64,000 nucleotides of DNA, taken from NCBI GenBank assembly GCA_950097015.1, contig CATNEN010000038.1, forward strand, positions 9,238,001 through 9,302,000. The letters are read 5' to 3'. The translations under genes were made by a program, and so were the position numbers. The stretch comes from Macrostomum hystrix. Lineage: Eukaryota > Animalia > Platyhelminthes. Each line of letters begins with the position of its first letter. The first letter of the stretch is position 1. Below, one piece after another: positions 1,251 to 52,636 of the stretch. The notes below the pieces were generated by a model. The model saw only the letters and a program-made list of their open reading frames with translations, was not told the origin of the DNA and made no database searches.

Positions 1251-1769
1251 GAAATCGTTTGCCTCTTCGGTCGGATGCCAATTAGTTTAGTGATTTGTTT
1301 CCGAGTGTCTAATTCTGTCGCGCGGCAAGTGATTTCCAAGTGCATTTAGAACTGGCAATGTTTCAGCCAAAGTCCAAAAACCGTTTGAGCAATTGAAGGC
1401 CACGCAGCTGTTGGAGTTGTAAAACTTCTATGTTTTTAGCGGCCAAGGATTAGCCAGCCCTGCAAACAGTAAGGCAGTAAACACTGGCTGCTTATACAGG
1501 CGCCAATCGAGGCATGCTTTATCTGCTGCTGCTGATTCTAAACTGTGCGCGAAGAGAACGAGGCATATGGCTGCCGTCTAGACTGAGGTGCCTCCGCTCT
1601 GCTAGCGATCGTAATCAGTTTCGACGCACTTCAACTTCGTCCACCAGGAGATTAGCGCCGCCGCCACCCGCCCCCTCCACCCTCGAAGCCAGTTTAGAGC
1701 CATCTAAGCTCGTGCTTTTTTCTGAATGAAAGAGCAATGTGCAATTTGAATTTGATTCCAGTCGTGGGA

Positions 1770-3751: not shown

Positions 3752-4975
3752 CTCCCCTGGCTCTTTCTTCCTCTCCCCTGGCTCTTTCTTCCTCTCCCCT
3801 GGCTCTTTCTTCCTCTCCCCTGGCTCTTTCTTCCTCTCCCCTGGCTCTTTCTTCCTCTCCCCTGGCTCTTTCTTCCTCTCCCCTGGCTCTTTCTTCCTCT
3901 CCCCTGGCTCTTTCTTCCTCTCCCCTGGCTCTTTCTTCCTCTCCCCTGGCTCTTTCTTCCTCTCCCCTGGCTCTTTCTTCCTCTCCCCTGGCTCTTTCTT
4001 CCTCTCCCCTGGCTCTTTCTTCCTCTCCCCTGGCTCTTTCTTCCTCTCCCCTGGCTCTTTCTTCCTCTCCCCTGGCTCTTTCTTCCTCTCCCCTGGCTCT
4101 TTCTTCCTCTCCCCTGGCTCTTTCTTCCTCTCCCCCTGACTATTTCTTCCTCTCCCCCCTGACTATTTCTTCCTCTCCCCCTGACTATTTCTTCCTTTCC
4201 CCCTGGCTCTTTCTTCCTCTCCTCCCTGTCTCTTTCTTCCTCTCCCTCTGACTCTTTCTTCCTTTCCCCCTGGCTCTTTCTTCCTCTCCTCCCTGGCTCT
4301 TTCTTCCTCTCCTCCCTGTCTCTTCCTTCCTCTCCCCCTGACTATTTCTTCCTTTCCCCCTGGCTCTTTCTTCCTCTCCTCCCTGTCTCTTCCTTCCTCT
4401 CCCCCTGACTATTTCTTCCTTTCCCCCTGGCTCTTTCTTCCTCTCCCCTGGCTCTTTCTTCCTCTCCCCTGGCTCTTTCTTCCTCTCCCCTGGCTCTTTC
4501 TTCCTCTCCTCCCTGGCTCTTTCTTCCTCTCCCCTGGCTCTTTCTTCCTCTCCCCTGGCTCTTTCTTCCTCTCCCCCTGACTATTTCTTCCTCTCCCCCC
4601 TGACTATTTCTTCCTCTCCCCCTGACTATTTCTTCCTTTCCCCCTGGCTCTTTCTTCCTCTCCTCCCTGTCTCTTTCTTCCTCTCCCTCTGACTCTTTCT
4701 TCCTTTCCCCCTGGCTCTTTCTTCCTCTCCTCCCTGGCTCTTTCTTCCTCTCCTCCCTGTCTCTTCCTTCCTCTCCCCCTGACTATTTCTTCCTTTCCCC
4801 CTGGCTCTTTCTTCCTCTCCCCTGGCTCTTTCTTCCTCTCCTCCCTGGCTCTTTCTTCCTCTCCTCCCTGTCTCTTTCTTCCTCTCCCTCTGACTCTTTC
4901 TTCCTCTCCCTCTGGCTCTTTCTTCCTCTCCCTCTGACTCTTTCTTCCTCTCCCTCTGACTCTTTCTCCTTTTCG
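3752..4975. repeat. 21-bp pyrimidine-rich minisatellite (CCCTGGCTCTTTCTTCCTCTC)
   Basis: Perfect units to ~4135, then degenerate variants; explains the SPGSFFL and LPWLFLP ORFs. Confidence 0.97.
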
Positions 4976-6098
4976 GTCTTTTCTTACAAATAAAGAAAGT
5001 TCATATTTAATTTCAGCATTCTGCAATAACCTTTATTTGTCTAGGCCTAGGGCCTAGGCTCCAAACTTTCAAGTTAGTTTGCGACTTCGCGTGTTAGTCT
5101 GCCAATTGCCAACTTCAATTTAACTTATCATATTTAATCGACTATGTTTTCAACTAGTGTTTCTTGCCTTAAAAACTGGTTGTTTCTCAGAAAATGCACT
5201 TTTAAAATGCCTTGTTCTTGCGTACACAATTCTGGCTGGCAGCCCCCCCTGTGGCTGTGGCCCGTCTCCCGTCTGTCTAGACTCGCTGCCACACACCACC
5301 CCCCTGTAAAAGCAGACGACAGCAATTGCTGCCAGCCAGCCAGCCAGCCTATTATTTCTTATTCTGCCCCTACATGCTGCAGCTTTCAAATCGTTTATTA
5401 TTAAGAGAAAACTGGTCGTTGCTTGCGAAAGAAAATTCAAATTTGACCTTAAACAACTGGGCAGTTGGCAGTTCGGAGTGCGGAGGGGGGTTGGCATACA
5501 GAGAACTCTTATCGCTTCACTTATCGGCTTCAGTTGAAGCTGAACCAGACCAACAGAGTCCAGAACATTTGCAGTCGCATGAGCTGTGAGAGTTGAATTT
5601 TGAGTGCCAGTCTGCCAGATAAAGTCAAGGCCGATCGTATATTATTTACTGTCTGTCTGCCCACTCCCAGCAAGCCAAACCAAAGCATTTTTATTACCTT
5701 GAAGAGTACGCATAACCTTGCAAAGTGTATCGCCAATTGAATCGACACAATACTGTCCACACTGAGAGAGAAATACGTCAAAGTTCGATTTATTTCACCG
5801 CAAATCTGCACTGCAGACTTATAGTCTCTGACTCTCTATAGTCTCCTTAGTCCTAACTCAAAATGTTAATTCTGCCCGCAGCCACAGCCCACAGCCAGTC
5901 TTATCGATAATATTACCGCTTACGTCAGCGCCATGTCTGCCTGGCTGCAGGTAGTCGCATTGGCAAGTCTCTTCTGCGAGTTCCAGACAATGCCAGATTG
6001 CATTTATATAGTGCACTGCGTACCTTAACAATACTGCCTGTGCCAATGCCAATCGACTAATCTTAACCGTATGCTTGCTGCCTTATTGTTACTTTACG

Positions 6099-6836
6099 TG
6101 TCTACTCTACTCAAAGCTCAACTTACTTCTCAAACCTGTCTACTCTACTCAAAGCTCTACTTCTTGAACCTTTCTACTCTACTCAAAGCTCTACTTCTCA
6201 AACCTGTCTACTCTACTCAAAGCTCGACTTACTTCTCAAACCTGTCTACTCTACTCAAAACTCTTCTTCTCAAACCTGTCTACTCTACTCAAAACTCTTC
6301 TTCTCAAACCTGTCTACTCTACTCAAAGCTCGACTTACTTCTCAAACCTGTCTACTCTACTCAAAACTCTTCTTCTCAAACCTGTCTACTCTACTCAAAA
6401 CTCTTCTTCTCAAACCTGTCTACTCTACTCAAAGCTCGACTTACTTCTCAAACCTGTCTACTCTACTAAAAACTTTTCTTCTCAAACCTATCTACTCTAC
6501 TCAAAACTCTTCTTCTCAAACCTGTCTACTCTACTCAAAGCTCGACTTACTTCTCAAACCTGTCTACTCTACTCAAAGCTCGACTTACTTCTCAAACCTG
6601 TCTACTCTACTAAAAACTTTTCTTCTCAAACCTGTCTACTCTACTCAAAGCTCGACTTACATCTCAAACCTGTCTACTCTACTCAAAAATTTTCTTCTCA
6701 AACCTGTCTACTCTACTCAAAGCTCGACTTACTTCTCAAACCTGTCTACTTTACTCAAGGCTCTACTGCTCAAACTTATCTTCTCTACTCAAAGCTCTAC
6801 TGCTCAAACCTATCTACTCTACTCAAAGCTCTACTT
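6099..6836. repeat. 34/38-bp minisatellite family C (CTCAAACCTGTCTACTCTACTCAAAGCTCTACTT), array 1
   Basis: Tandem units; same family at 7848-8392, 9088-9613 and 18218-18975. Confidence 0.95.
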
Positions 6837-6969
6837 TTCCTATCTGTTTACTCAACTCATACCAGAACTCTCTGACTGTGTGAATCGTGCTGTCTGAATC
6901 GCTCAGACTTTCTAGTCACAGTCCAGTCACAATCAACAGCATGTGGAGAAGCCAGTGAAATGTGGTCCC

Positions 6970-7065
6970 AACCGACCAATGCGACGCTTTTCATTGGCCG
7001 TGATAGCCGTGCCAGGGGGGCGGCGGGTGGGTGACTCTTGTTTTTCTGTCCTATAAGAGCTGGGG
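6970..7065 (+). promoter_or_regulatory. Candidate Pol II core promoter of gene X
   Basis: CCAAT (~6977), inverted CCAAT (~6993), GC-box-like GGGGGCGGCGGG (~7016-7027) and TATAAGAG (7052-7059), about 160 bp upstream of ATG 7215. A possible 5'UTR intron ends at TTCTACAG (~7191). Confidence 0.5.
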
Positions 7066-7214
7066 CCGCATGGACCACTGTCTGGTCCAAAGTAACTCCC
7101 TGTTAGAAACTAATTAAATAAGCTTAAGCAGCTAGACCTGACCACTGCCAGCTGTTAATTTGATTTGTCCTACCTGATTTTCATTCTACAGTACGCAGTT
7201 GACTAAAATTAGTC

Positions 7215-9816
7215 ATGAGTTTGCGAAAATTGTTCTCCTGCGTTTCACAGCAGAACACCCGGCGCGACCAACAGGAGCGAGACAATGACGCCTACGCCGA
7301 AGGCCGCGTCGGATGCGGCACAATACAGACGTCCAAAGTTAGACGGCGCAGTCGAGAGCGCTGCCCAAAGTGCAAGGGCGTTCTGCCGCCATCGCGGGAC
7401 AAGACAGGCTCCCGTCCGCAGCAGCTGTTGCTTCAAAGCCATGCAGCGGTGCCGCCAATTTTAATTCCAGCCGCGAAGTGCGTCAAAGAAGACTCGGGCT
7501 GCTTTGAAGCCAGGGTAAATGATCACTTGTTTAGACTGGCTTATAGAAGAGACTCGACTAATTTTCTGTGTCTGTCTGCGCTCAAAAGAATCCGGATTAG
7601 CTCGTAGCTATTAGATTGCGAAACACATGGGATTTACCTGAGGCCGCGATTAAAATTGGTTCCCAATCAGAGACAGCACCTGATCTCTGATTGCTGTCTT
7701 CTGATCTCATAGATCTGCTTTAAGTTTACAAGCACGATTGCACTAAAGGATTATGTAAGTCCAACCGCACTTATCCTCTCAAAGGAACAGCTAAGTCGAT
7801 CGACTAAAAGTGACTCACGCAATTGGGTGAGATGGTACAATGAAGCTCAACTACTCAAAGCTCTACTTACTTCTCAAACTTGTAACCTGTCTACTCCACT
7901 GAACGCTAACCTATTCTCGATTAACCTTATTAACCTTAAGCTCTACTTTCTTCTCAAACCTGTCTCAAACCTGTCTTCTCTACTCAAAGCTCTTCTTCTT
8001 AAACCTGTCTTCTCTACTCAAAGCTCTACTTACTTCTCAAACCTGTCTACTCTACTCAAAGCTCTACTTACTTCTCAAACCTGTCTACTCTACTCAAAGC
8101 TCTACTTCTCAAACCTGTCTACTCTACTCAAAGCTCTACTTCTCAAACCTGTCTACTCTACTCAAAGCTCTACTTCTCAAACCTGTCTACTCTACTCAAA
8201 GCTCTACTTCTCAAACCTGTCTACTCTACTCAAAGCTCTACTTCTCAAACCTGTCTTCTCTACTCAAAGCTCTACTTACTTCTCAAACCTGTCTACTCTA
8301 CTCAAAGCTCTACTTACTTCTCAAACCTGTCTACTCTACTCAAAGCTCTACTTCTCAAACCTGTCTTCTCTACTCAAAGCTCTTCTTCTCAATCACTTCT
8401 CAAGAGTCAATTTGTGCCACAATCTTCCAGCAGCTGCATGCAGAACCAGAAGCGGCGCGACCAGCTCAGGGCGATCAGGAAGACTCTGGTGTTGGTCTAG
8501 GCGATACCGCCGACTGCCCAGGTCCGTCGACGCAACCTCGGCGACAGCAGCAGCAGCAGCATCAGCAGCCGGCTCCATTTAAATCAGGAGCGGACAGCCG
8601 GAGCACCGACCTGTTTCTGCTGCAGCTCAGGGAGCAGACCAGGTGGGTGCCGAGGCTGCCAAATCAACAGGCGCCCTGCGACCGGGCCAGTCAGAACCGA
8701 TTTCGAGAGCTCAAGGCTGCCTGTACCATGCAGGTACGCCTACAGCCATTAGCCGCTAGTAAGTGATAACTATCCAGCTGTGTCACAATTAGTATTTTTT
8801 AGTATCATATGAGTATTCTTAAACGATTTTGTCTTTTTCAGACTTTTATTAACGCCATCAAACCAGCAATTTGTTAAAATTTTCACACTGTCCAACTCTA
8901 GATATACGAGACTCTTTACACAGATGTGAATTTTGAAGTTATTGTGCCACAATATTGTTGTCTCCTTCACTCTACACTAAAACCCTCGTTTGCGTGTCGT
9001 CTTGCTTTTTCAGCCAGTCGCACCAATATCTTGAAATTCATTTAGCAAGTCATATGCGTCATATCTTTCATTTTTCTTATTCAGACCCGTCTTCTCTACT
9101 CAAAGCTCTACTTCTCAAACCTGTCTACTCTACTCAAAGCTCTACTTCTCAAACCTGTCTTCTCTGCACAAAGCTCTACTTCTCAAACCTGTCTACTCTA
9201 CTCAAAGCTCTACTTCTCAAACCTGTCTACTCTACTCAAAGCTCTACTTCTCAAACCTGTCTACTCTACTCAAAGCTCTACTTCTCAAACCTGTCTTCTC
9301 TACTCAAAGCTCTACTTCGCAAACCTGTCTACTCTACTCAAGGCTCTACTTCTCAAACCTGTCTACTCTACTCAAAGCTCTACTTCTCAAACCTGTCTAC
9401 TCTACTCAAAGCTCTACTTCTCAAATCTGTCTTCTCTACTCAAAGCTCTACTTCTCAAACCTGTCTTCTCTACTGAAAGCTCTACTTTTCAAACCTGTCT
9501 ACTCTACTCAAAGCTCTACTTCTCATACCTGTCTACTCTACTCAAAGCTCTACTTCTCAAACCTGTCTACTCTACTCAAAGCTCTACTTCTCAAACCTGT
9601 CTACTCTACTCAATGCTAACCTATTCTCGTTCGTAGTCATATGCGTCATATCTGTCAATTTTCTTAATTCAGATTGCATCCTTCAAACTAGTTTGTTCCC
9701 TGGTTGGATATCGAGCTGTGAAAATTGACGGGCAAATGTGTTTGTTTGTCTGTACCGGTGACCTTCGCGATGATTCACCAGGTTCTTATTTAACAAGCAA
9801 TTTTTTAGTTTGCTAG
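7215..9816 (+). CDS. Unknown protein ('gene X'), predicted 3 exons: 7215-7514, 8431-8733, 9673-9816 (~248 aa)
   Basis: GT-AG junctions AGG|gtaaat, ttccag|CAG, CAG|gtacgc and attcag|ATT are all phase 0, and the frame is stop-free. Exon 2 reads QLHAEPEAARPAQGDQEDSGVGLG...ELKAACTMQ. Contains a CPKC motif, poly-Q and two EDSG motifs. No homologue recognised; exon 3 is the least certain. Confidence 0.55.
7848..8392. repeat. Minisatellite family C, array 2 (intron 1 of gene X)
   Basis: Tandem 34/38-bp units. Confidence 0.95.
9088..9613. repeat. Minisatellite family C, array 3 (intron 2 of gene X)
   Basis: Tandem 34-bp units flanked by an imperfect ~38-bp direct repeat (9048-9085 / 9635-9672). Confidence 0.95.
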
Positions 9817-10553
9817 GCTCTTGGTTTTCTTTATTTAAATAAACTTTCTGTCTCGTTCTTCATATATAATTATGCTGTGTAAAACTCGTGCAGAAGCTTT
9901 TTGAACTCGCGCCAAATTGGATCATTTGTTTGTCTTTATTCAAGCCGGAAAACTGGCACAGTTGTGGCAATGGCAACTCCAGCATTTTTACAATCTGTTT
10001 AGAGCCACAAATCAGAGTTACATTTTTCATTTTGTACTTTTCAATGCATTCGCGCTTTCATTTGCCTGTGTACAATTTGCATTATTATTTGAGTCATTTC
10101 TGACTATAAATAGATTTGCCTACTGTCCTGCTGGATGTACTCATGTGAGATAATGTCAGTATAATATATATTATTAACTATTCCCCCATTGAAATCCCGA
10201 GTACTAACGAGTTTATTAGCTCAATCAGGATTGGATCAGTTTTTGGACAGTCCCTCTGGTCTTGTTTCATTTCTGTGTTAAAAGTATGAACTTTTTTTTC
10301 TGTCTACTGGTGAATGTGCAATAAATAAAAGACTGGACTTCAACCTCTAATACGAAATAAATTGGAAACAAAAAATCTGGCTTCATGGACTATAGAAGCT
10401 ACAATTATATTGCTATAAGACTCGATAAATATTAAATACAAATTTTCCATAGAGACTCACTGCCTAAAAACGTAAACAAAGTACAGGACGTAAAAAGTAT
10501 TGTGTTATTACTATTTTTTGTCATTGGTACTAAAAGCTAGATTCCACATATGC

Positions 10554-10662
10554 GAAGGCTTGCTGGCTTTTCGTGCAATTTATACGCCCTTCAGAAGGCC
10601 AAAGGTAAGACTGCCCCTTACTGTGTCTGAGGGGCAAAGTAAGAGTGTTCACTGCCTGGCAC
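10554..10662 (+). mobile_element. Partial SINE family 1 fragment (duplicated at ~19777-19886)
   Basis: GAAGGCTT..TCGTGCAATTTATACGCCCTT..GAGTGTTCACTGCCTG resembles the body of the SINEs at 54315 and 61690. Confidence 0.55.
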
Positions 10663-10666
10663 CCCA

Positions 10667-11263
10667 TCTCTGCCACTCTCACCCTCTGCCACTCTCACCC
10701 TCTGCCACTCTCACCCTCTGCCACTCTCACCCTCTGCCACTCTCACCCTCTGCCACTCTCACCCTCTGCCACTCTCACCCTCTGCCACTCTCACCCTCTG
10801 CCACTCTCACCCTCTGCCACTCTCACCCTCTGCCACTCTCACCCTCTGCCACTCTCACCCTCTGCCACTCTCACCCTCTGCCACTCTCACCCTCTGCCAC
10901 TCTCACCCTCTGCCACTCTCACCCTCTGCCACTCTCACCCTCTGCCACTCTCACCCTCTGCCATTCTCACTCTCTGCCACTCTCACCCTCTGCCACTCTC
11001 ACCCTCTGCCACTCTCACCCTCTGCCACTCTCACCCTCTGCCACTCTCACCCTCTGCCACTCTCACCCTCTGCCACTCTCACCCTCTGCCACTCTCACCC
11101 TCTGCCACTTTCACCCTCTGCCACTCTCACCCTCTGCCACTCTCACCCTCTGCCATTCTCACTCTCTGCCACTCTCACCCTCTGCCACTCTCACCCTCTG
11201 CCACTCTCACCCTCTGCCACTCTCACCCTCTGCCACTCTCACTCTCTGCCACTCTCACCCTCT
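10667..11263. repeat. 16-bp minisatellite (TCTGCCACTCTCACCC); short paralogous array at 19893-19980
   Basis: Near-perfect tandem units. Confidence 0.97.
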
Positions 11264-11799: not shown

Positions 11800-13020
11800 G
11801 CGAACATTGTGTGTCGAGGAAATGAACTCTTTTTAGGCCCGAGCTCTTCCTGTCGGTTATTTTTTAACGCCAGCGCATTGCCTCTGCGCATAAACGAACT
11901 GCTTTGAGCTTGGCTTCCATGGATACATCGAAGACCATCGGCACGAACTGTGCAAATTAGCAGCGTGCAGCAGATACATCGCAAGACGATACGATCCGAA
12001 CCAACAATCGCAGAAGACATGATAACCTAAATCAAATTCGTACCTAACTGCTTCCACCAGGACCCTTTCACTCAGAGACAACCCGCCACACCCGAGACCT
12101 CGACCGATTCTCAGTTCTCAGCCCTGCTAGAGTGTACTAAGAAGTTGCTGACGTAACCGGATCTAGCTTCGCAAATGCAATACAGTTTTATACCATATCG
12201 CGCTCTCTTAGATGGAATATTCTGACGAAACATGACGCGACCCCTGCACAGGACTAGCTCTTCATCGACGCTAATTTCCTTTTCTGGCATGCAAACGTTG
12301 CGACAAATCTCAGCTACACGCGCAATTATTGGTCTCGCCTTTGCTAGTGGGTCGTTTCCATCGAAGTTGTTGCAGTCATAGAATCGCAGTAGGCTACTGA
12401 TCTGTTGGTACCTGTCTCTTGTTAGGCAAACGAGTTTTTTAAAAAAGGTGTCGCGTAGAAATCATCGTTGCTCCAATAGCTGGCTACGAGTATCTCTGGC
12501 TTTTCAACTATTCCCATGTAAAGCAACATAGCGACAAACTGTTTTATCTTGTTGCGGAAGGTTCTGCATCGGCGCTTGACTCACTTCACTTAGCTGCAGG
12601 GGGCATCCTTCGGATGCAGTGGGGAGGCGTTGCCGCCCATTCCGCTAGCCCGTGGTGCATCGACGCTTGCAGCTTATCGAATTTATGCCATTTGGTCCCA
12701 TTGCAGAGTTGTTGCAGCAGACCAACGGTCAGAAATAGCTTTAAAAACGCTGCTGGATCGTCATCGGCGATCTCTGGCCTCGGCAAGTCAGTGTCCAGGC
12801 CGGGCATTCCCAAGAACTCGGGTTCTACATCAGGCCGTTGATCCTGCCCAGGTTCCCGTGCCGCCCAAGCATCATTCAGAAAGTTGTCGACAACTTCATT
12901 TGGCTGGAGATAGATGTCCTCCACTATCTCCCCTTCATCCTCGTCCGCAGTTAGCCATTCTTCCTCCTTCTCAAATTCGGAGTCGGTATCTGGATCAAAA
13001 TGTACTTGAGCCGCAGCCAT
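11800..13020 (-). pseudogene. piggyBac (PGBD-like, DDE_Tnp_1_7) transposase relic, frameshifted and 3'-truncated
   Basis: Minus-strand translation gives an acidic N-terminus, then PAAFLKLFLT, KIKQFVAMLLYMGIV, SYWS, LTRDRYQQISSLLRF, DPLAKARPII, ISVDEELV, FRQNIPSKRARYGIKLYCICEARSGYV and GYHVFCDCWFGS. These are the piggyBac motifs around the first two catalytic Asp. Several frameshifts; no TTAA-CCC termini seen. Confidence 0.9.
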
Positions 13021-13445
13021 GACGAACACGTGGACTACTAAATTGTCGTTATATCTACTTGGGTAGCCCGAAACTGTCAAATACTGTAATTATACTAAGT
13101 TAAAAAGGTGCTGAGCACCAAATTACTCAAAACTAATTTGCACTTGTTCTTGATTCGATTCAAACTTTATTTCAAAAGGTCAATCACATCAACTCATATC
13201 TACTCACCCACCCACCCATTACCCGCGCCCACTCTAATCTGTTCTTTGCTTTCATGGTTATCCTAAGCAGTTTAGGGGTAGTGCAAACTGCTTGTTTGTT
13301 TAAGGCAAGATTCGGTCGCTCAGTGATTTTGGCCATAGACTAAAGGCAGCTGAGTGAGCACGTACAGGCACAGCGGATGGTCTATCTATATTAGCGTATT
13401 TAGCTCGAAACAGCTTAATGACAAGACCAAAAATATTTTTGTAAA

Positions 13446-13731
13446 ACTAAACTCAGTAATCAACCCCAGCAATAAATCACTAAACTCAGTAATCAACCCC
13501 AGCAATAAATCACTAAACTCAGTAATCAACCCCAGCAATCAATCACTAAACTCAGTAGTTAACCCCAGCAATCAATCACTAAACTCAGTAGTTAACCCCA
13601 GTAATAGATCACTAAACTCAGTAGTTAACCCCAGCAATCAATCACTAAACTCAGTAGTTAACCCCAGTAATAGATCACTAAACTCAGTAGTTAACCCCAG
13701 CAATCAATCACTAAACTCAATAGTCAGCCCC
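13446..13731. repeat. 33-bp tandem repeat immediately 5' of the Ly6-like copy 1 ATG (~8.5 units; ~2.5 units at 21190-21272 in copy 2)
   Basis: CTAAACTCAGTAGTTAACCCCAGCAATCAATCA units. Confidence 0.93.
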
Positions 13732-13735
13732 AAAG

Positions 13736-14416
13736 ATGAACAAGCTGCAGGCACTGTTACTGATTGCGCTAGTGCTGCTCGTCTTTGGTGAGTACTAAAG
13801 CTTTGTATCTATTTAACTAGAGTTCCAGAACTGATTAATGTTGGTCTACTCTTCTCGGAGTTTGACACTGTAAGCTTGACTATTGCAGTTTTAATTTTAT
13901 ATTTCAGAATTTCAGACTGTGAGTGGTCTTAAGTGCTACGTGTTCACATCGTCGAATGCGGGCTATCGTACACAAACATGCGCAAAAAACGAGCATTGCA
14001 TAACTATCTCTTTAAAAAGCAATACAGTAAGCTGCTGCTTTTATTAAGCCGTGCCATGGTTACTAATTAACTCTGAAAGGTTGAACTGCGAATTCTTTCA
14101 GCGACTCTCTCACTCCGACTCCTTTCAGAGTGCACAACTCCTTTCGACCGGCATATGTGCACAACAATTCTATTGCACCATTACGACAAATGTTTTAGAC
14201 CTGAGTGTCCATAATGGCTCCTGCGTCGCATGTGCTACTAACTTGTGCAACACACCGCCCAAAAACATCGCGGCCTCCACCACCATCGTGGCCTCCAACA
14301 CCATCGCGGCCTCCAAAGCGGCCTCCAAAGCGGCCTCCAAAGTCGGCGTGGGCCTGACTGTCAACCCAAAAATCGCCGCATTCGCCGCAGTGGCCGCAGT
14401 GGCCACCCTGTGGTGA
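13736..14416 (+). CDS. Ly6/uPAR (three-finger)-like secreted, probably GPI-anchored protein, copy 1; exons 13736-13787, 13908-14026, 14129 (alt 14102)-14416
   Basis: Signal peptide MNKLQALLLIALVLLVF with a phase-1 intron. Mature region LKCYVF..QTCAKNEHCITI..GICAQQFYC..GSCVACATNLCN has 8 Cys, an LxC start and a CN end. It is followed by an Ala/Ser/Thr stalk and a hydrophobic C-terminus (IAAFAAVAAVATLW*). Splice sites are conserved in copy 2. Confidence 0.85.
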
Positions 14417-15148
14417 AGCTCAGCTGAAGCTCAGTATACACACTCCATCATAGATTTCATCATCGACCCCATCAAAGACTTTATAAAAAATTCCTGTTAA
14501 AAACTGAATCAACTGGCTCGCATACTTTGTTTCTATAACAGATCATAAACTTTTCTTACTTAAAGTAAAAATGAAAACGTAAAATAAATTGTTCGCCCAG
14601 TTTGCTGATTGCGTGAAAACCAACAAGTCCTTAAAAATCCTTCTATTTGGTTGAAGCTGCGGTCTCGCAGTATCAAAACACACGGAACAAAAAACACTCG
14701 TACAAAGGACAGAGCTAATCTTAACGACAAATATAAAATAGTCAAGAATGGGGTGGGTGACAAGCAGAGGGGTAGAACCACAGAATACACCAGAATGCTC
14801 AATCAGCTTCCAAATCTAAAGCCGAAATATAAAGCCATAGACACTACTCCTGAGGTGAAGAAGAGTTAAGTAGTACTAAAATTTGAGAAGTAGTCACCCT
14901 TTTGTATGTCTATTCAAGTTGGAAATTTTTATGGACAGAGAGGCCCGATTGTATATTTGCAGCTGTAGCGACATAAAAATGCTGATATTATTTTTGAGCA
15001 TTCAACGCAAACTAGAACAGTTAAGAAACAGCAGAATGAGCAGCAGTTTAAGCAATTGGGTACGTGATGCAGCTGTACATAAAAATTGAACATGAAATTT
15101 GCAAACTAGAACAGTTTAGAAACAGCAACATGAGCAGCAGTTTAAGCA

Positions 15149-16455
15149 TCAAACAACAGGCATCCTATACTTTAGCGGATAACAGGCGCCGCAGCTTTCG
15201 TTGTTCTGCTGAAGCTGTACTCGTACTCGGAGCTCCGCGCTTCCTGGCAGCTCGAAATATTGCCTGTTGAGCTTTGCACCAGTGATGTAACCGCCGTTTT
15301 CAGTGTGTTGCATATTCCTTTTTTCTAGGAAACGCATGCCCTCATTGCAACCATCGCGACTTAGGAGACCCATTTTGCAGTCCTGGCAAGCGGTGCGCAA
15401 CCGCAACAAGCAATGAAGCATCCAACCTCCAACATAGGAACTGATAGGGAACTTCTCACCATCCGCTTTGATTTCATCGGTGATTGGCTGAATGAGATTG
15501 GTTAACATGGGAACTGAACTGTCGGGTTTGCAGTTGTTAGCAAACGATGGGCAGCCAAGTAACTGGTTGACGGCCAGTGAGCGGAATGCCGCAGCAGCTT
15601 CTTTATACTCCGGACAGTCATTGAAGCCGCCTCGTCGTCGGATGCATGCAAAGCCATTCTCTACATGATCTTGAGTAAGATTTCTGGACAACACAGATTT
15701 GCAGTCTCCACTGGAAAGCATTTGCATAGACACAACCTTTAGTGATCTCAAACTGAGCTGCCAACCTTCGTGAAAGCTGAGACCATGATACTGTTTTCCA
15801 ATTCTTTTTAAGAACCTCAGAGAGTTCAGCCAGCCGATCCAATAATCAATTTCTTGACTTTTTGCCTGCAGGTTCTCAGCAGTAATGGCCTTGAATGATG
15901 CTGCGTTATTGGTGAGGTCAAAAAGCTTGTCTACTTGCTCACAGAACTTAGCCGTACCAGAAGAGGTTGGAGAAGAAAGCAATCCGTGTTCCTGGTACAC
16001 AGCAATTGCGTGCGCCATGGTACGGGAAAGAACTTGCGCTGCAGTCTTAGTTGGGCACCTTGGGCACCAGTCTTAGTTGGTCAGGCTTTGCAAATTCGAA
16101 TCCAGACACCGAGAGAATGTCATCCCAACTAGCTGCCAGCCTTGTACTACCAGAGTCAAATTCAATGGTGTACTTCTGCAGCGCGTAGCGCTGTTTTTGA
16201 TGCAGTGGGGAACATCGATCAGGACAGGTATTTCTGTCTCAGTTCTGTCGCTCAGCTTTATTGCCACATTCGAATGGGCTGCAGTGGCTCCTAGTTTCTT
16301 CAAAGACTTCCACTGCGTCGGCTGTTGGTCGCAGACGAGGGCACAAACTTTGAGTCTCATTCTTTTGGCCGCAGTCAAAGATTCCGACAGAATCTGCAAA
16401 AACCTTGGTTGACCAGGAGAATGGTGAACCAAGTAGTGTCCAATGGGCTGCTTCC
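15149..16455 (-). pseudogene. P-element/THAP9-type transposase relic
   Basis: Motifs WKQPIGHY, ALVCDQ, LIDVPHCIKN, AAQVLSRT, TAKFCEQVDKLFDLTN and LTQDHVENGFACIRRRGGFND. Frameshifts, an apparent internal deletion near 16045-16085, and the 5' part replaced by minisatellite A. Confidence 0.9.
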
Positions 16456-18100
16456 AGGGGCGGATGGAATTTCTAACTGAGGGCGGATTCAAGGGCGTAT
16501 GGCATTTCTAAAAGATGGTGGATTCAGGGGTGGATTCGATTTCTACCTTAGGGTGGATTCAGGGGCGGATTCAGGGGCGGATTCGATTTCTACCATAGGG
16601 TGGATTCAGGGGCGGATTCAGGGGCGGATGGGATTTCTAAAAGATGGTGGATTCAGGGGTGGATTCAGGGGCGGATTCAGGGGCGGATTCAGGGGCAGAT
16701 TCGATTTCTACCTTGGTCGGATTCAGGGGCGGATTCAGGGGCGGATTCGATTTCTACCTTGGTCAGATTCAGGGGTGGATTCAGGGGCGGATTCGATTTC
16801 TACCATAGGGTGGATTCAGGGGCGGATTCGATTTCTACCATAGGGTGGATTCAGGGGCGGATTCGATTTCTGCCATAGGGTGGATTCAGGGGCGGATTCG
16901 ATTTCTACCTTGGGCGGATCCAGGGGTTTTTTTTGGGGTTGGTAGGGAGCGGATTTTTTAAGGATTGGTAGATAACGGATTGTTTAGGTGTTGGTAAAGA
17001 GCGGATTTTTTTGGGGTTGGTAGGGAGCGGATTTTGGTGTTGGTAGGGAGCTTATTTTGGGATTGGTAGGCAGCGTATTTAGAAGTTGGTAGAGAGCGGA
17101 TTTAGGAGTAGGTAGGAAGCGGATATTGGGTTTGGAAGGAAGCGGATTTAGGAATTGGTTAGGAGCGGATTTTGGACTTGTTAGGGAGCGCATTTTAGGT
17201 TTGGTAGGGAGCGGATTTAGGAGTTGGTAGGGAGCGGATTTAAGAGTTGGTTGGGAGCGGATTTTGGGGTTGTTAGGGAGCGAATTTTGGGTTTGGTAGG
17301 GAGCTTATTTTGGGATTGGTAGGCAGCGGATTTAGTAGTTGGTAGGGAGCGGATTTAGGAGTGGTTAGGGAGCGGATTGGGTGGTTGGTAGGGAGCTAAT
17401 TTTTGGGTTGGTAGGGAGCGGATTTAGGAGTTGGTAGGGAGCGGATTTAGGAGTTGGTAGGTAGCGCATTCTGGCTGCCATCTGGTTATGGTTGGTAGGG
17501 AGCGGATATTGTGTTTGGTAGGGAGCGGATTTAGGAGTTGGTAGGGAGCGGATTTAGGAGTTGGTAGGGAACGGATTTAAGAGTTGGTTGGGAGCGGATT
17601 TTGGGGTTGTTAGGGAGCGGATTTTGGGCTTGGTAGGGAGCGGATTTAGGAGTTGGTACGGAGCGGATATTGTGTTTGGTAGGGAGCGGATATTGGGTTT
17701 GGTAGGGAGCGGATATAGGAGTTGGTTGGGAGCGGATATTGTGTTTGGTAGGGAGCGGATATTGTTTTTGGTAGGGAGCGGATATTGTTTTTGGTAGGGA
17801 GCGGATTTAGGAGTTGGTAGGGAGCGGATATTGTGTTTGGTAGGGAGCAGATATTGGGTTTGGTAGGGAGCGGATATAGGAGTTGGTAGGGAGCGGATAT
17901 TGTGTCTGGTAGGGAGCGGATTTAGGAGTTGATTGGGAGCGGATTTTGGGGTTTGTAGGGAGCTGATTTTGGGGTTGGTAGGGAGCGGATTTAGGAGTTG
18001 GTAGGGAGCGGTTATTGTGTTTGGTAGGGAGCGGATATTGGGTTCGGTAGAGAGCGGATATAGGAGTTGGTTGATAGCGGATTTTGGGGTTGTTAGGGAG
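16456..18100. repeat. Second copy of G-rich minisatellites A (16456-16925) and B (16935-18100)
   Basis: Same units and order as 1-2675, without the 1250-1770 spacer. Confidence 0.95.
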
Positions 18101-19039
18101 CCGTCCGCAGCAGCTGTTGCTTCAAAGCCATGCAGCGGTGCCGCCAATTATAATTCCCGCCGCGAAGTGCGACAAAGAAGACTCGGGCTGCTTTGAAGCC
18201 TGGGTAAATGATCACTCAACTCTACTCAAAGCTCTACTTCTCAAACCTGTCTACTCTACTCAAAGCTCTACTTCTCAAACCTGTCTACTCTACTCAAAGT
18301 TCTACTTCTTGAACCTGTCTACTCTACTCAAAGCTCTACTTCTTGAACCTTTCTACTCTACTCAAAGCTCTACTTCTCAAACCTGTCTACTCTACTCAAA
18401 GCTCTACTTCTCAAACATGTCTACTCTACTCAAAGCTCTACTTCTTGAACCTTTCTACTCTACTCAAAGCTCTACTTCTCAAACCTGTCTACTCTACTCA
18501 AAGCTCTACTTCTCAAACCTGTCTACTCTACTCAAAGCTCTACTTCTCAAACCTGTCTACTCTACTCAAAGTTCTACTTCTTGAACCTGTCTACTCTACT
18601 CAAAGCTCTACTTCTTGAACCTTTCTACTCTACTCAAAGCTCTACTTCTCAAACCTGTCTACTCTACTCAAAGCTATACTTCTCAAACCTGTCTTCTCTA
18701 CTCAAAGCTCTACTTCTTGAACCTGTCTACTCTACTCAAAGCTCTACTTCTCAAACCTGTCTACTCTACTCAAAGCTCTACTTACTTCTCAAACCTGTCT
18801 ACTCTACTCAAAGCTCTACTTACTTCTCAAACCTGTCTACTCTACTCAAAGCTCTACTTACTTCTCAAACCTGTCTACTCTACCTAAAGCTCTACTTCTC
18901 AAACCTGTCTACTCTACTCAAAGCTCTACTTCTCAAACCTGTCTACTCTACTCAAAGCTCTGCTTCTCAAACCTGTACCGGTGACCTTCGCGATGATTCA
19001 CCAGGTTCTTATTTAACAAGCAATTTTTTAGTTTGCTAG
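18101..19039 (+). pseudogene. Deleted duplicate of gene X: 3' part of exon 1, family C array (18218-18975), 3' part of exon 3
   Basis: 18101-18215 matches 7412-7526 and 18974-19039 matches 9751-9816. Start codon, exon 2 and the exon 3 acceptor are missing. Confidence 0.85.
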
Positions 19040-20594
19040 GCTCTTGGTTTTGTTTATTTAAATAAACTTTCTGTCTCGTTCTTCATATATAATTATTTTG
19101 TTTAAAACTTGTGCAGAAGCTTTTTGAACTCGCGCCAAATTGAATCATTTGATTGTCTTTATTCAAGCCGGAAAACTGGCACAGTGGTGGCAATGGCAAC
19201 TCCAGCATTTTTTACAATCTGTTTAGAGCCACAAATCAGAGTTAAATTTTTCATTTTGTACTTTTCAATGCATTCGCGCTTTCATTTGCCTGTGTACAAT
19301 TTGCATTATTATTTGAGTCATTTCTGACTATAAATAGTTTTGCCTACTGTTCTGCTGGATGTACTCATGTGAGATAATGTCAGTAGAATATATATATTAA
19401 CTATTCCCCCATTGAAATCCCGAGTACTAACGAGTTTATTAGCTCAATCAGGATTGGATCAGTTTTTGGACAGTCCCTCTGGTCTTGTTTCATTTCTGTG
19501 TTAAAAGTATGAACTCTTTTTTCTGTCTACTGGTGAATGTGCAATAAATAAAAGACTGGACTTCAACCTCTAATACGAAATAAATTGGAAACAAAAAATC
19601 TGGCTTCATGGACTATACAAGCTACAATTATATTGCTATAAGACTCGATAAATATTAAATACAAATTTTCCATAGAGACTCACTGCCTAAAAACGTAAAC
19701 AAAGTACAGGACGTAAAAAGTATTGTGTTATTACTATTTTTTGTCATTGGTACTAAAAGCTAGATTCCACATATGCGAAGGCTTGCTGGCTTTTCGTGCA
19801 ATTTATACGCCCTTCAGAAGGCCAACGATAAGACTGCGCCCCTTACTGTGTCTGAGGGGCAAAGTAAGAGTGTTCACTGCCTGGCACCCCATCTCTGCCA
19901 CTCTCACCCTCTGCCACTCTCACCCTCTGCCACTCTCACCCTCTGCCACTCTCACCCTCTGCCACTCTCACCCTCTGCCACCCTTTCCACTCCCAGGATT
20001 TTGATTCCAATCCCAGGATTTAGAATCCAATCACAATTACAGGACCCACAATGACAGTGAAATATTAGTTTTATAGTGAGTCCAGTTTTTTAGTAAAATG
20101 TTTTAAGAATCAAAGCAATTGTGGTTTTGTTTATTTCATTCTCCATCGTGATTTTTTCGCAGCCTCTATTATTACCAAAGGCTAACGCTCGTATTACTAA
20201 TCTAATTTCACAATTATATTCATCTTTGTACATTTCAACCTGTCACTGTGGTCCGGTTTCGCTAGTCTCACCAAATTTTGCAGCTGAATTAACTGCTTTA
20301 GTCTCATTTAATTCTAATGCATTGATTTAGTCACACGCGCAATACAGACTACTGACCATTTTATTGGTGAGTAGAGTCATCAGCATTGTTGTTATCTCTT
20401 TAGAAATATATATTTCTCTTAATTTTTTCAACTTTTTTTCATCTGTACTTCTTTTAACCGTTAAAAGCGATTTTCACACCTGCTTAACTTCACTAAGCAC
20501 CGAATGAGAGTAACAGGTACTCAAGACTCGACACAAGAAGTACATAACTTCCTCGATTAACTAAGCTGTTCTTGGTGGCAAAATAATTCACATA

Positions 20595-20855
20595 GACACA
20601 GGAGAGGTGAGACACGGGAGAGTTGAGACACGGGAGAGATAGACACGGGAGAGATGAGACACGGGAGAGATGAGACACGGGGTAGAGGTGAGACACGGGA
20701 GAGATGAGGCACGGGAGAGATGAGGCACGGGGTAGAGGTGAGACACGGGGTAGAGGTGAGACACGGGGGAGAGATGAGATACGGGAGAGATGAGACACGG
20801 GTAAGATGAGACTCGGGAGAGATGAGACACGGGAGAGATGAGGCACGGGAGAGAG
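20595..20855. repeat. Degenerate 18-bp purine-rich repeat (GAGATGAGACACGGGAGA)
   Basis: Tandem units; the reverse complement resembles the internal repeats of the hAT MITEs at 24854 and 29037. Confidence 0.9.
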
Positions 20856-21277
20856 GTGCTGAGCACCAAATTACTCATTTCTAATTTGCACTTGTTCTTG
20901 ATACGATTCAAAATTTATTTCAAAAGGTCAATCACATCAACTCATATCTCCTCACCCACCCACCCATTACCCGCCCCACTCCAATCTGCTCTTTGCTTTC
21001 ATGGTTATCCTAAGCAGTCCAGGGGTAGTGCAAACTGCTTGTTTGTTTAAGGCACGATTCGGTCGCTCATTGATTTTGGCCATAGACTAAAGGCAGCTGA
21101 GTGAGCACGTACAGGCACAGCGGATGGTCTATCTATATTAGCGTATTTAGCTCGAAACAGCTAAATGACAAGACAAAATATATTTGTAAAACTCAGAAGT
21201 CAACCCCAGCAATAAATCACTAAACTCAGTAGTCAACCCCAGCAATAACTCCCTAAACTCAGTTGTCAACCACAAAG

Positions 21278-22027
21278 ATGAACAAGCTGCAGGCACTGTT
21301 ACTGATTGCGCTAGTGCTGCTCGTCTCTGGTGAGTACTAAAGCTTTGTATCTATTTAACTACCGCGCCCATTGGCTTTCCAGCTGCCTTAATCGTTTCCG
21401 GTGATCTTGTGTGCGTGCTTTCAGCTTGATTGGCTGCGGCAATCGCTTCGCTCGCTCTTTCTCGCTATCTCTAACTAGAGTTCCAGGACTGATTAATGTT
21501 GGTCTAGTCTTCTAGGAGTTTGAAACTGTAAGCTTGACCATTGGGGTTTTAATTTTATATTTCAGAATTTCAGATTGTGAGTGGTCTACAGTGCTACTTG
21601 TTCGAATCGTCGAAACCAGGCTATCGTACACTTACATGCGCAGCAAACGAGCCGTATTGCGTAACTCTCTTTTCTAATAGCACTACAGTAAGCTGCTGCT
21701 TTTATTAAGCCGTGCTGGTTACTAATTAACTCTGAAAGGTTGAACTGCGAATTCTTTCAGAGTGCACAAGTCTATTCGATCGGCTCATGTGCACTACTAT
21801 TCGATTGCGACAAGTTCAAAAATCAGCACCAGAGAGACCATCAGCGCTCCTGCGTCGAATGTTTTACTGACTTGTGCAACACACCGCCCAAAAACATCGC
21901 GGCCCCCAACACCATCGTGGCCTCCAAAGCGGCCTCCAAAGCGGCCTCCAAAGTCGGCGTGGGCCTGACTGTCAACCCAAAAATCGCCGCATTCGCCGCA
22001 GTGGCCGCAGTGGCCACCCTGTGGTGA
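21278..22027 (+). CDS. Ly6/uPAR (three-finger)-like GPI-type protein, copy 2; exons 21278-21329, 21566-21687, 21761-22027
   Basis: Spliced translation: MNKLQALLLIALVLLVSEFQIVSGLQCYLFESSKPGYRTLTCAANEPYCVTLFSNSTT|SAQVYSIGSCALLFDCDKFKNQHQRDHQRSCVECFTDLCNTPPKN...VATLW*. Intact frame with GT-AG introns of phase 1 and 0. Confidence 0.87.
21362..21471. mobile_element. 110-bp insertion in intron 1 of Ly6-like copy 2 with a 6-bp target-site duplication
   Basis: TAACTA at 21356-21361 and 21472-21477; copy 1 has the empty site (TTTAACTAGAG). Confidence 0.75.
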
Positions 22028-22247
22028 AGCTCAGCTGAAGCTCAGTAAACACTCCATCATAGACTTCATCATAGACCCATCAAAAACTTTATAAAAAATT
22101 CCTGTTAAAAAACTGTAGTAGAGGGTTGTAAGTAGTAAAAGAGGTTGAGAGCAAGGCGGTGGTTCTTTTGGTTTATTTGATTGGTCTTGTAACCAAGTTA
22201 AAGGGGGGAAAGGAGAGGCGTAAAGATTATCCACAGTGGCCGTCGTT

Positions 22248-22502: not shown

Positions 22503-24853
22503 TACAAGCGTACCTATCCCCCAAGCACGCCAACACGTCTTGCCCCCCCTGGCTACCCTGCTGGCCACTCTTTTGGCCAGCCCACGCTGCTGGTCAAAAA
22601 CAGTTTTTGTTTTACTTACACCGTTTTCTTTAGTCTAGACTCGTTTCATGGGAGACAGTGTTCGGCTTTTGTTCAATGATTCTGACGAGTAGAAACTGAG
22701 GAGGTTTGCGATTGCGTGATCGCACGCGCATGCTTATATTTATTCTTGTTTGAATGGAATATTTTACAAACTGCAAGAACGCTCTGGAAATGCCGAATTC
22801 GACTTTACAATATTTTGATCTCAATATGGTATCGAAAGTTTGCGAGGGTCTCTACACGTTCACAAGTGATAATTTACGTATCATTTTACGCATGCAAGAC
22901 TAGTTGAGTAAAACTGTACAACAGGAAATCAGGAAATCCATTTCTCGTATATGCAGCGAATATCTTAGACTGCTAGCTCAGCAGAGCTCGACGTCTCATT
23001 TTTCACTTCGAGTCCAGTTGACTGTTCTCACAAATGGGAAATTTAGCCAATCAAGAAAACGAATTATTTTTTATTCTGCAGTAACGCTAACTAAACCAAA
23101 AAGTAGAAATGACTATTTATTCGATTTCAAACAGAAACATCGGATGAAAAATAAACTGGTAACTACAGTTTGCAAAGCCTGTATATTGCCTAAAGCAGCA
23201 GTTAACAGCAGTAAATTGCCTAAAGATGTAGACATAGCCCACTGTAGTACGCAACCTCAAATAGTAGGCAAGGTGGTAGGCAGAGTATTGGCTCAGAATC
23301 AAGCAGTGAAGCGAAGAAGCCTCTCTCTGAAGTTGGTCCAATATATAAATTGTTCATTACCAAAATATGACGTCAGAGGGCAAGTTCTGGTCGACTAAAT
23401 AAATGCAGTTTATTTAGTACAGCATAAATAAGAACATATTAGTTATCAATAAACTGTCAATTAAAGTTTTTCATAACTATACGAGCGCAGAATCGTGTAG
23501 GCGAGCCTAAAGAAGCTTATGGAAGATTAAATTTATAACTAATGGTAAAAAAGCAATTGTGCCTGGATTAAAGGACTAAATTAATTTTGGCAATAAACGT
23601 GATTTTTAATATAGCACAACTAGCTACTCGGTTTGGTCATTGTGAGTAGTGAATTTAGTCTGGATTGTAAAATTTTGCCAATTGGAGTGCTCCCATGATT
23701 AATTTGACTGGGACGACAGGACAGGTTTGGCCATAGGACCCCAGTGGCTCTGTGAGTTCGAATGAGGCATTTCAATTTATGATTGATTTGACTGCTCGAG
23801 CATGATCGAAATTGCATGATTGGGAAAAGGCCATACTAAGATTGCCGACTGAACCGTGAATCGATAACAACGCAAAGTTACTTTAACTTGTTGTATTCCG
23901 TGCTGAATCGCCATTGGCTTCCACAGGAATTATCAAACAAAAAATTATTGCTAAGTTGACAGGCACAAATATATTAATGTCAACCAAAAACGGACAAAAA
24001 GTAGCAAGGCTACAGAGATTGAGCAGCAGGCATCGAGTTCAGGTTAGAAGAGTTTAGATCATTGCCAATGCCCAATAAGTCACTAAGTGGTACAAACCAT
24101 TCGTCTGGCTCGCTAATGGTTATAGGCGCCGTTACGGAACTTGTGGAAGCAGTGGAATTGCCAATAACAAAAAATTGTGCATTTGGCGAAGATACCGCTT
24201 GGCAACCAGATTAGCTGCAATCAAATCGGTAGCTGTCACGCAGACCTTTCTGTTGCATCCGTTAGCCCGGCCGTGGAAGGTGATGTGCTTCTTAAGAAAG
24301 AGAGTGAAGTCAGAGACAGTGCGGGCAGAGACAGCTATGTTCAGATGCTTTTCCAAATTGTGCTCAAAGCGACAATATTTTAAATAGGCAGCGATGAGCT
24401 CCTGCTGAGTTCGAGCTGGAAGAGAACGCCGATAGTGTGCCGTCAGTCCGGTACCCCTTCCACTCCAGGAGTTGCATAAGAGACAAGTGATGCGAATGTG
24501 CCTTGCTGTCGAATTGATTTTTATTGCTAGGCAAGATACTAGACTAGACAATGATAGATAAGAGAGTGAATAGATGACACGAGACCAAGATTTGACAGAG
24601 AAGAGATGAGATAGGAAACGGGTGAGAATCCAAATGCTGAAAGATGTTTTTTAAATGTAAAATTCAGGTTAATGTAAATGACCTACTTAAATTCCCCTTG
24701 GTGTAAATTACCCTTATAACATTAATAATACTTTCTAAATGTAATTAGAATTTCAGACCTAGACAGCCTGAGTGTGAAAAGTCTTTGTTATTGGGTGTGA
24801 TTATAAACAGGGGTAACAATTAAGGCCATAGCCTATAACCACAAATAGAGCTG

Positions 24854-29434: not shown

Positions 29435-29571
29435 CTTTAGACTGTAATTTCTAAAAGCATTCATACTTTACAATATACATATATTTGTTATTTCATATTT
29501 TGTATATATATTAAAAATAGTGTGTGTGTGTGTGCGCTGTTTATTATCATTAGCAACAATCGCGCCTTCAG

Positions 29572-31037
29572 CAGCCAAAGGCGACGCCACTGCTCCCAGA
29601 GTCTTTGTCCAGCCTGCTAGGCGCTGGCCGCCGTGCCGCCGCACCCTCTCCTAGCCTGCCGGTGCTTCAGCTGCAGCCGGAGCAGCGGCTGGGTCGGCTT
29701 GGCCGCATTCAGCAGGTCAACCGGGCCCTGCTGCTCATGCTGGCCTGCGGCTTGAACTTTCGCACAGAAAGTCGGCGCCTGATTGGCCGCATCGTAACCG
29801 CCGGCAGGCAGCTCAGCCGCGGCGAGCCGCTAGACGGTCTTACAGCCGACTGCGCCAGGCAGGCCGCAGCCAGCTATGCGGCTATGAGCGCTAGCCAGAA
29901 GGCCACTGTCCGAGCCTGCATTCCTCTGCCTGCCTCCTTCACCCGTCTGGACCTGTGCGCCTTGGACCTGCAACATGCCGGCCCGAGCTCTGCTAACAAC
30001 TTCTTGATGAGGTGCGCTTCCTTAGCTTTATTACCTGACAGTAGGACTACCAAGCTATTTTTCACCCGTTTTTATACCAGGAAGATTTTTTGGTAGCGCC
30101 CGAATGCTTGCAGCGTTGGGTGGTGACTGATTGGTTGACAGACTTGGCGATGGTGTCCTGTGGTTGAGCTGCGCCTAATATTTAGGCTTGATCAGTCAAA
30201 GGAGAAATTCGCGTCAGGGTGTCCATAGTAGCCTATTTCCACCAGTTGTAGCCCTTGAAGGTCCAGCAAATCCGTCTAGATAAAGGTAGGTGACCACCGA
30301 AGACGGAGATGATGCAGGCACATTCGAATGACATAGTGATACATTTTGAAGGCCTGGCAAGGCGCAGTGCTAATTAGTGTATAGGGGTGAATGAAAAACA
30401 CAAGCGCTTATGGGAAAAATCAAACATTTAGCCCTTAAGAACGCAACCAATTTGCCATCAGAAGGCAGCCAATGTCCCCACAGAAGGCAGCCAATGTCCC
30501 CACAGAAGGCAGCCAATGTCCCCACAGAAGGCAGCCAATGTCCCCACAGAAGGCAGCCAATGTCCCCACAGAAAGCAACCAATATACACCCCTAACAGGC
30601 AACGAATTCCACATTTTAGCAACTCATATCCTCCCTTTAGCAGCTAACAATGTCCCCACTCATCGCAGATTCGAGCTCAGGTAGTTCAGTACATTTCTCA
30701 TTGATTGACTTATATTTGTGCTACCAGATGCGTCCGTGTTGGCGTCTCACTCCGCCTGTTCGGCTGTCACACCGTGCCAAAAGCCCAACTGAAGCTGTCT
30801 GACAAGAGTTACATCGCCGGCGTGACTTCAAGGTTCATGCCTAGTCCGGAGGTGGTCGCCGGGTCTTACATTTGGTCAGTCAGTGCTCAAAGAGTCCTGG
30901 TATTTAACGGCCTGAAATTGTGCGGTCCGGAGCGAGTGTTTATTGACACAGACGGCAGCGCATTGAGAACCGGCGATTGGACTATTAACTATCTGAATCT
31001 TATGCTACGTACAGATGCACAGTTTACTAATCAATAG
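29572..31037 (+). CDS. Hypothetical gene, last two exons ~29572-30011 and 30728-31037; start unresolved
   Basis: GC-rich open frame after CCTTCAG. Donor AG|gtgcgc (phase 2) joins in frame to ctaccag|A TGC (..NNFLMR|CVRVGVSLRLFGC..). AATAAA at ~31082. No homologue recognised. Confidence 0.4.
30459..30572. repeat. 22-bp tandem repeat (CAGAAGGCAGCCAATGTCCCCA), ~5 units
   Basis: Directly visible. Confidence 0.92.
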
Positions 31038-52553: not shown

Positions 52554-52636
52554 TGAGGCAAACAGTCCATCCCACTTGCAGGTATTATGTCTCGCAAACA
52601 CACACCGTGACACCAGTCGAAGGATCCGACTGAGAA

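Follow-up and report, generated by a model that had tools for sequence, protein, structure and literature searches.

A recently duplicated pair of predicted GPI-anchored three-finger protein genes with a divergent mature domain in Macrostomum hystrix

Two recently duplicated neighbouring genes, hereafter genes A and B, lie within a tandem duplication in a 64,000-nucleotide (nt) stretch of Macrostomum hystrix contig CATNEN010000038.1 (positions 9,238,001 to 9,302,000; hereinafter referred to as the window). The proteins that they encode share 52% identity in the mature domain. In our preferred reading, to which we assign a probability of about 0.65, A and B are two young copies from a small family of glycosylphosphatidylinositol (GPI)-tethered three-finger proteins, the loops of which were diversified by positive selection for a changing binding partner. 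Overall, the genes are real, expressed (gene B is spliced) and probably positively selected, and the surface role proposed for them is putative.

Gene structure, transcripts and codon divergence

Gene A encoded 152 amino acids (aa) and gene B 146 aa, each in three exons with an open frame. All introns were of the GT-AG type, the first in phase 1 and the second in phase 0. The features of the two copies were as follows.

13106..14503 (+): gene-bearing duplicated block, copy A, comprising upstream region, gene and start of the 3' untranslated region (UTR)
13446..13732 (+): 33-nt tandem repeat in the leader region of A, 8.7 copies
13736..13787 (+): gene A exon 1, encoding the signal peptide (hydropathy of up to 3.66 across 11 residues) and followed by the phase-1 intron
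13908..14026 (+): gene A exon 2, end of the signal peptide and Cys1-Cys3, predicted to form finger I and the first half of finger II
14102..14128 (+): 27-nt insertion at the intron-2 acceptor of gene A, with a second in-frame AG at 14100-14101
14129..14416 (+): gene A exon 3, Cys4-Cys8-Asn, Ser/Thr/Ala stalk and hydrophobic tail resembling a GPI signal
20854..22111 (+): gene-bearing duplicated block, copy B; transcript contigs reach to at least 22200
21189-21271: 33-nt tandem repeat in the leader region of B, 2.5 copies; B contigs cover from about 21200
21278..21329 (+): gene B exon 1, signal peptide, spliced onto exon 2 in both X1 and X4
21356..21471 (+): insertion of 116 nt within gene B intron 1, with TAACTA as a direct repeat at its boundaries
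21566..21687 (+): gene B exon 2, in spliced contigs; LU/three-finger features in the ESM Atlas, best match 0.88
21761..22027 (+): gene B exon 3, which encodes the Cys-Asn, the stalk and the hydrophobic tail; ESM Atlas features 0.83-0.90, with QVR/UPAR_LY6 clusters from rank 3

Part of gene B was found in 20 sequencing runs, none recorded as RNA, of which eight came from organism A (the same organism as the window) and twelve from organism B. Two of the eight (X1 and X4, from two studies) and two of the twelve were compared with gene B in detail. Because contigs in both same-organism runs skipped both introns exactly at GT-AG, gene B is spliced as modelled, and contigs covering exons 2-3 showed 0 differences from the window. 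The larger family proposed in the initial annotation was also borne out: X1 and X4 contained at least two further tail types, each of them present in X1 as well as in X4 (9 to 14 differences over 94-121 nt among three listed pieces), together with contigs whose leader and signal exon were common to B (8 to 15 differences) and which were thereafter unlike it. In each run at least one further transcript had a dissimilar middle, one contig departing from B after its 5' part and returning to B in the tail. Most simply, these contigs would represent further paralogues, divergent alleles being the other reading, and the family would so far number four or more (A, B and at least two further transcripts). 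Both paralogous tail types were altered at the stop codon of B (21972-22025; X1, X4), which would lengthen their C-termini, and one carried a polar residue near its C-terminal end; such changes may alter anchoring.

The domain of 74 aa contained 8 Cys with gaps of 14, 5/6, 18, 5, 15/14, 2 and 4, and the stalk in exon 3 of gene A carried 18-nt and 12-nt repeats. The 27-nt insertion of gene A was bounded by a CTTTCAG direct repeat (14095-14128) and provides two in-frame acceptors; use of the upstream AG (14100-14101) would add 9 residues at the predicted tip of finger II, and alternative splicing could give A two finger-II lengths. The 116-nt insertion of gene B occurred in one copy only in the window and had no match in Rfam, while in a DNA run of organism B (X9) the depth of related contigs added up to about 5e5; the insertion resembles a very high-copy repeat of organism B.

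Codon alignment of the mature domain (73 aligned codons) revealed 35 replacement codons and 1 synonymous codon, and all 8 Cys codons were identical. Exon 2 contained 15 replacement codons, 1 codon indel and 1 synonymous difference (CTT/CTA), and exon 3 up to the Cys-Asn contained 21 replacement codons, 1 indel and 0 synonymous codons. These exon counts, the identity of the Cys codons and the 1-nt difference in the signal exon had been given in the initial annotation and were reproduced exactly; its estimate of about 30 identical C-terminal codons compares with 33 identical final codons. Its description of intron 2 as near-identical was right for substitutions (0 over 73 aligned nt) but had overlooked a 27-nt and a 2-nt indel. 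Similarly, the flanks of the domain were near-identical as claimed, but two differences had escaped notice: intron 1 of B carries the insertion of 116 nt, and the stalk differs by a 6-codon repeat indel, along with 2 replacements. Non-coding DNA differed at 25 of 611 sites. Of the 55 coding differences, 51 fell within the domain, with finger III more heavily changed (18 of 42 nt) than the rest (33 of 177; P 0.002). The surplus of replacement change over silent change was restricted to this Cys-framed domain. Where both copies encoded the same amino acid, 37 of 38 codons were identical, and 1 of 17 fourfold sites differed.

Probable selection on the mature domain and possible gene conversion

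The single synonymous codon counted by hand was correct, but codon counting understates the synonymous rate (dS): counting along mutational pathways gave 4 changes (maximum 6) on 51 synonymous sites. The Nei-Gojobori method (NG86) yielded a replacement rate (dN) of 0.350 and a dS of 0.083 over the 73 aligned codons, corresponding to an omega (dN/dS) of 4.2 (Fisher P 0.0014). A pairwise codon model fitted by maximum likelihood (ML) gave an omega of 5.1-5.7 under three frequency models (likelihood-ratio test p 0.002-0.004). In this one pair, dN/dS of the domain is above 1 and dS is far from saturated. The findings that had been named beforehand as contrary to the hypothesis (an omega of 1 or less, saturated dS or no spliced transcript) were not obtained. 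The domain was also claimed to evolve faster than the introns, and replacement sites differed at 47 of 168 positions against 25 of 611 in non-coding DNA (P 3e-17); the domain synonymous sites (4 of 51) were compatible with the non-coding rate (P 0.27).

Among codons with a single change, 1 of 23 was synonymous, where a fraction of 0.22-0.28 was expected (P 0.006-0.022). In neutral simulations with Cys fixed, 1 or no synonymous codon was obtained in about 0.3% of 5000 runs (P about 0.003). Codons with multiple changes were not in excess (13 observed, about 10 expected; P 0.12-0.13), and removal of the ambiguous finger-III stretch left an ML omega of about 4.5 (p 0.013-0.014). Diversification of the A/B domain by positive selection is likely on these comparisons. 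The following points weigh against this reading. Maximally synonymous pathways raised P to 0.017, and to 0.058 without finger III, and the estimate was made from one gene pair with about 4 synonymous changes, a pair picked out for this very pattern. Further, the lack of substitutions in the tail and in intron 2 may be a sign that conversion or constraint acted locally.

Gene conversion could have produced a mosaic in which the domain exons derive from older paralogues and the signal exon, introns and tail were recently homogenised, so that the contrast would partly reflect age. Both the 115-nt identical run in the tail and the 73 of 73 identical sites of intron 2 exceed the expectation from 4.1% non-coding divergence (P about 0.016 at a length of 99 nt and about 0.047 at 73 nt). 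Also in favour of a mosaic, divergence was 1.8% in a nearby duplicated stretch compared with 4.2% upstream of the genes, and there are further paralogues that could have served as donors. The maximal synonymous count (6 of 51) lies above the non-coding rate (P 0.026), a point for a mosaic that also counts against the preferred reading. An older domain under constraint, however, would show more silent than replacement change, and here same-residue codons were identical at 37 of 38 positions, fourfold sites differed at 1 of 17 and dS was 0.083. Conversion may add to the contrast but leaves dN > dS unexplained, and as the main explanation it is improbable.

Predicted fold and anchoring

The exon layout of both genes corresponds to that of the Ly6/uPAR (LU) family, with a signal exon, two domain exons, an anchor-like signal in exon 3 and a phase-1 first intron. 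In B, intron 2 falls after residue 58, halfway from Cys49 to Cys68 (Cys3/Cys4). The domain size (74 aa with 8 spaced Cys) falls in the LU range of 60-90 residues and 8-10 Cys, and Asn directly follows the last Cys in both A and B. The LU archetype has three exons, a domain split at the tip of loop 2 and a terminal Cys-Asn, and its 2-3 disulfide is often lost (PMC6600238). When exons 2 and 3 of gene B were queried apart in the ESM Atlas by language-model features, each retrieved LU-clan clusters; the first matches of the two queries scored 0.90 and 0.88, and all ten family-bearing matches belonged to one clan, LU (0.77-0.88). On gene layout, the Cys pattern with its Cys-Asn end and the language-model features of both exons, A and B probably encode a Ly6/uPAR three-finger fold, the whole-domain fold being predicted from half-domain evidence.

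Several observations count against this assignment and the predicted anchor. Every LU-bearing Atlas cluster scored below 0.9, and one third of shuffled proteins likewise obtained ten matches of one clan. No LU profile of Pfam matched any of the four exon pieces, which were scanned as half-domains. The isolated exon-3 model was a hairpin with helices instead of half a three-finger sheet (predicted local distance difference test, pLDDT, 81; predicted template modelling score, pTM, 0.54). The hydrophobic tail is Ala-rich and was judged on hydropathy alone. In addition, both copies carry CxxC-x4-CN where CC-x4-CN is expected, a layout of 8 Cys that the initial annotation had already described correctly. 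Some invertebrate LU proteins have spaced cysteines at the CC position. The vertebrate-type C-terminal motif is CC-x4-CN (PMC8904931). Regarding the three-finger fold claimed earlier, the layout, Cys pattern and Atlas features provide a lead, but no Pfam, PDB-sequence or fold match was obtained on exon halves. Profile, sequence and PDB-sequence searches with the exon pieces found no relative, nor did an exon-piece search of 1.84 billion representative proteins, and the single-sequence half-domain models of the gene B exons had no significant fold match.

These results leave room for a different account, in which selection is real but acts on another small disulfide-rich fold, or on a protein that is secreted or spans the membrane and has no GPI anchor. 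The empty profile and sequence searches, the partly helical exon-3 model and CxxC in place of CC are in its favour. Against it, the exon layout, intron position, Cys spacing and Cys-Asn fit the LU archetype, both exons apart retrieved the LU clan, and the exon-2 model contained the expected N-terminal hairpin (strands 3-7 and 13-18; pLDDT 71, pTM 0.31). We consider this account quite improbable and retain the anchored three-finger reading. The C-terminus, which consists of a Ser/Thr/Ala stalk, small residues, a spacer and 14 hydrophobic residues (mean hydropathy 2.18) before the stop, with no cytoplasmic tail, looks like a GPI signal and is taken as a putative anchor.

Genomic setting of the two copies

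Both genes are preceded by minisatellite arrays, which follow one another in the same order, and by a unique stretch of 914 nt. The copy of this stretch ahead of B showed 98% identity (1.8% divergence) to 9754-10667. Because the array order and the 914-nt stretch recur ahead of both genes, the tandem duplication must extend beyond the gene block. The 13-nt near-palindrome that starts the shared block was located at 13107-13119 in A and 20855-20867 in B, and GTTAAAAA occurred on both sides of block A (13098-13105 and 14496-14503); together they possibly represent microhomology at a breakpoint. Other features of the window were as follows.

11850-13020 (-): decayed piggyBac-like transposase (DDE_Tnp_1_7, E 7e-24)
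15149-16072 (-): P-element/THAP9-like transposase fragment between genes A and B (TNP-like_GBD, E 1e-8)
16445..19981 (no strand): repeat arrays and the 914-nt unique stretch, with the array order of 1-11263 upstream of A
37722-41965 (+): ACK/PR2-type tyrosine kinase gene (SAM, kinase, SH3), its introns filled with minisatellites
49618-52554 and 57983-60874: long 21-nt and 24-nt tandem arrays in which both strands have frames of about 1000 codons without a stop, probably non-coding
52634-55348 (+): ABC transporter exons (ABC_membrane, ABC_tran), read here as ABCB-like

The piggyBac-like transposase lies directly upstream of the gene A block, head-to-head with it, and its 3' part enters a 34-nt repeat array. 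The ACK-type kinase showed 95% identity to a Macrostomum lignano protein over a 193-aa query, the other listed matches being at most 75%, and on this match the window was assigned to a Macrostomum flatworm near M. lignano. Three open frames of 170-275 aa (56652-57479 and 29554-30096 on the plus strand, 24132-24650 on the minus strand) matched no significant Pfam family.

The position of gene A between the decayed piggyBac-like transposase and the P-element-like fragment would suit relaxed constraint and decay of one copy, probably A, after duplication, without selection for new binding. Gene A shares the 3' UTR of B just to 14503 and has an insertion at its acceptor. The contigs were compared with gene B, and expression of A is predicted, which also bears against the preferred reading. 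Neutral decay, however, predicts an omega of about 1 and about 4% change everywhere, while replacement sites showed 28%; the 8 Cys codons, frame, signal and tail of A are all intact, and the neutral simulation (P about 0.003) disagrees with decay as well, which makes it very unlikely. That A and B are divergent alleles assembled in tandem and held apart by balancing selection is scarcely credible: haplotypes were separately assembled before purging in published Macrostomum assemblies (PMC10468722) and repeats are abundant in the region (34% of the window was masked), but A and B sit on a single unbroken sequence, their insertions and their downstream DNA differ, and B was identical to the window in both same-organism runs examined.

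Proposed role and comparison with known systems

In the selection-driven, anchored three-finger reading, the signal peptide would be cleaved after Gly24, four core disulfides would lock the scaffold, and the Ser/Thr/Ala stalk and GPI anchor would present its three loops at the cell surface. After duplication, the copies would have escaped constraint and then been selected for new loop surfaces, most of all in finger III, the loops being rewritten in each copy to follow or escape a binding partner. An omega of about 5 over a whole domain between young paralogues would mark an arms-race molecule. A receptor or gamete surface of the mating partner is a tentative candidate for that partner, microbes or parasites at the epidermis or gut are a slightly weaker one, and partners of other kinds are doubtful; all are candidates by inference. 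Reproduction was slightly favoured because reproduction-related genes diverge fastest in the genus, as reported for Macrostomum (PMC7336406), and because anchored LU proteins act on gametes (10.1101/354688). It is an unlikely extension that an anchored three-finger family evolving at the speed of venom toxins serves, on sperm, egg or female-tract cells of a simultaneous hermaphrodite, as a variable partner-recognition code; if so, sexual conflict or the discrimination of self from non-self in flatworms would become accessible to molecular study, and the genus already serves as a model in the laboratory (PMC10468722).

LU proteins are present in every animal phylum surveyed, flatworms among them (PMC13719153), and recent flatworm duplicates are enriched in genes for secreted proteins (10.1101/2024.02.05.578899). 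Like the predicted products of A and B, the trematode Ly6/CD59-like proteins of Fasciola and Schistosoma belong to flatworm multigene families; they have a signal peptide, Cys-Asn and a GPI signal, and domain searches pick them up poorly (PMC8763315). They are, however, of the PF00021 type with ten Cys and an N-terminal C1-xx-C2, whereas A and B have 8 Cys and no N-terminal C-xx-C; their context is the parasite tegument, and the word "selection" is absent from the main text of that article. Dipteran Ly6 clusters are also tandem invertebrate duplicates with a conserved exon-intron structure (PMC4476152), but these are old duplications studied for expression divergence, whereas A and B are young with a whole-domain omega above 1. 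Bouncer/SPACA4 resembles the predicted products of A and B as a small GPI-anchored LU protein of surface recognition that is divergent save for its cysteines (10.1101/354688); it has 10 Cys and 40% identity between species more than 150 million years apart, compared with 52% between young paralogues of one genome here.

Hypervariable three-finger families with a conserved frame are already well documented in snake three-finger toxins (3FTx) and in the plethodontid modulating factor (PMF), a three-finger pheromone of salamanders. PMF has 8-Cys three-finger proteins with many paralogues, conserved cysteines, pervasive positive selection and a most variable finger 3 (PMC4029566, PMC8904931), but it is secreted by a vertebrate gland, a single male makes more than 30 isoforms, and its role in courtship is known. 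A and B retain the stalk and anchor-like tail, have CxxC-x4-CN and number at least four members so far, and homology to PMF is limited to the inferred fold. Snake 3FTx share the three exons, loss of the 2-3 disulfide in derived forms and fast coding change after duplication (PMC10421932, PMC2711939). They radiated once the membrane-anchoring region had been lost, whereas the anchor-like tail is the most conserved part of A and B, is kept and identical in both copies, and sets them outside the snake 3FTx, which are secreted products of the venom gland. Nor do A and B carry the CC-x4-CN of vertebrate-type three-finger proteins (3FTx, PMF, SPF), having CxxC-x4-CN instead; they resemble PMF and snake 3FTx in tempo but belong to neither. 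No relative was found among the 1.84 billion representative proteins, even though the kinase nearby and its M. lignano counterpart share 95% identity, and the literature searches returned no such Ly6 family in Macrostomum. The occurrence in a free-living flatworm of a CxxC-type set that diversifies fast and retains an anchor appears to be new, and no paper on such a set was listed in these searches. The hypervariable families compared here, the snake toxins and PMF, are secreted vertebrate products, and an anchored CxxC version from a flatworm would extend that pattern.

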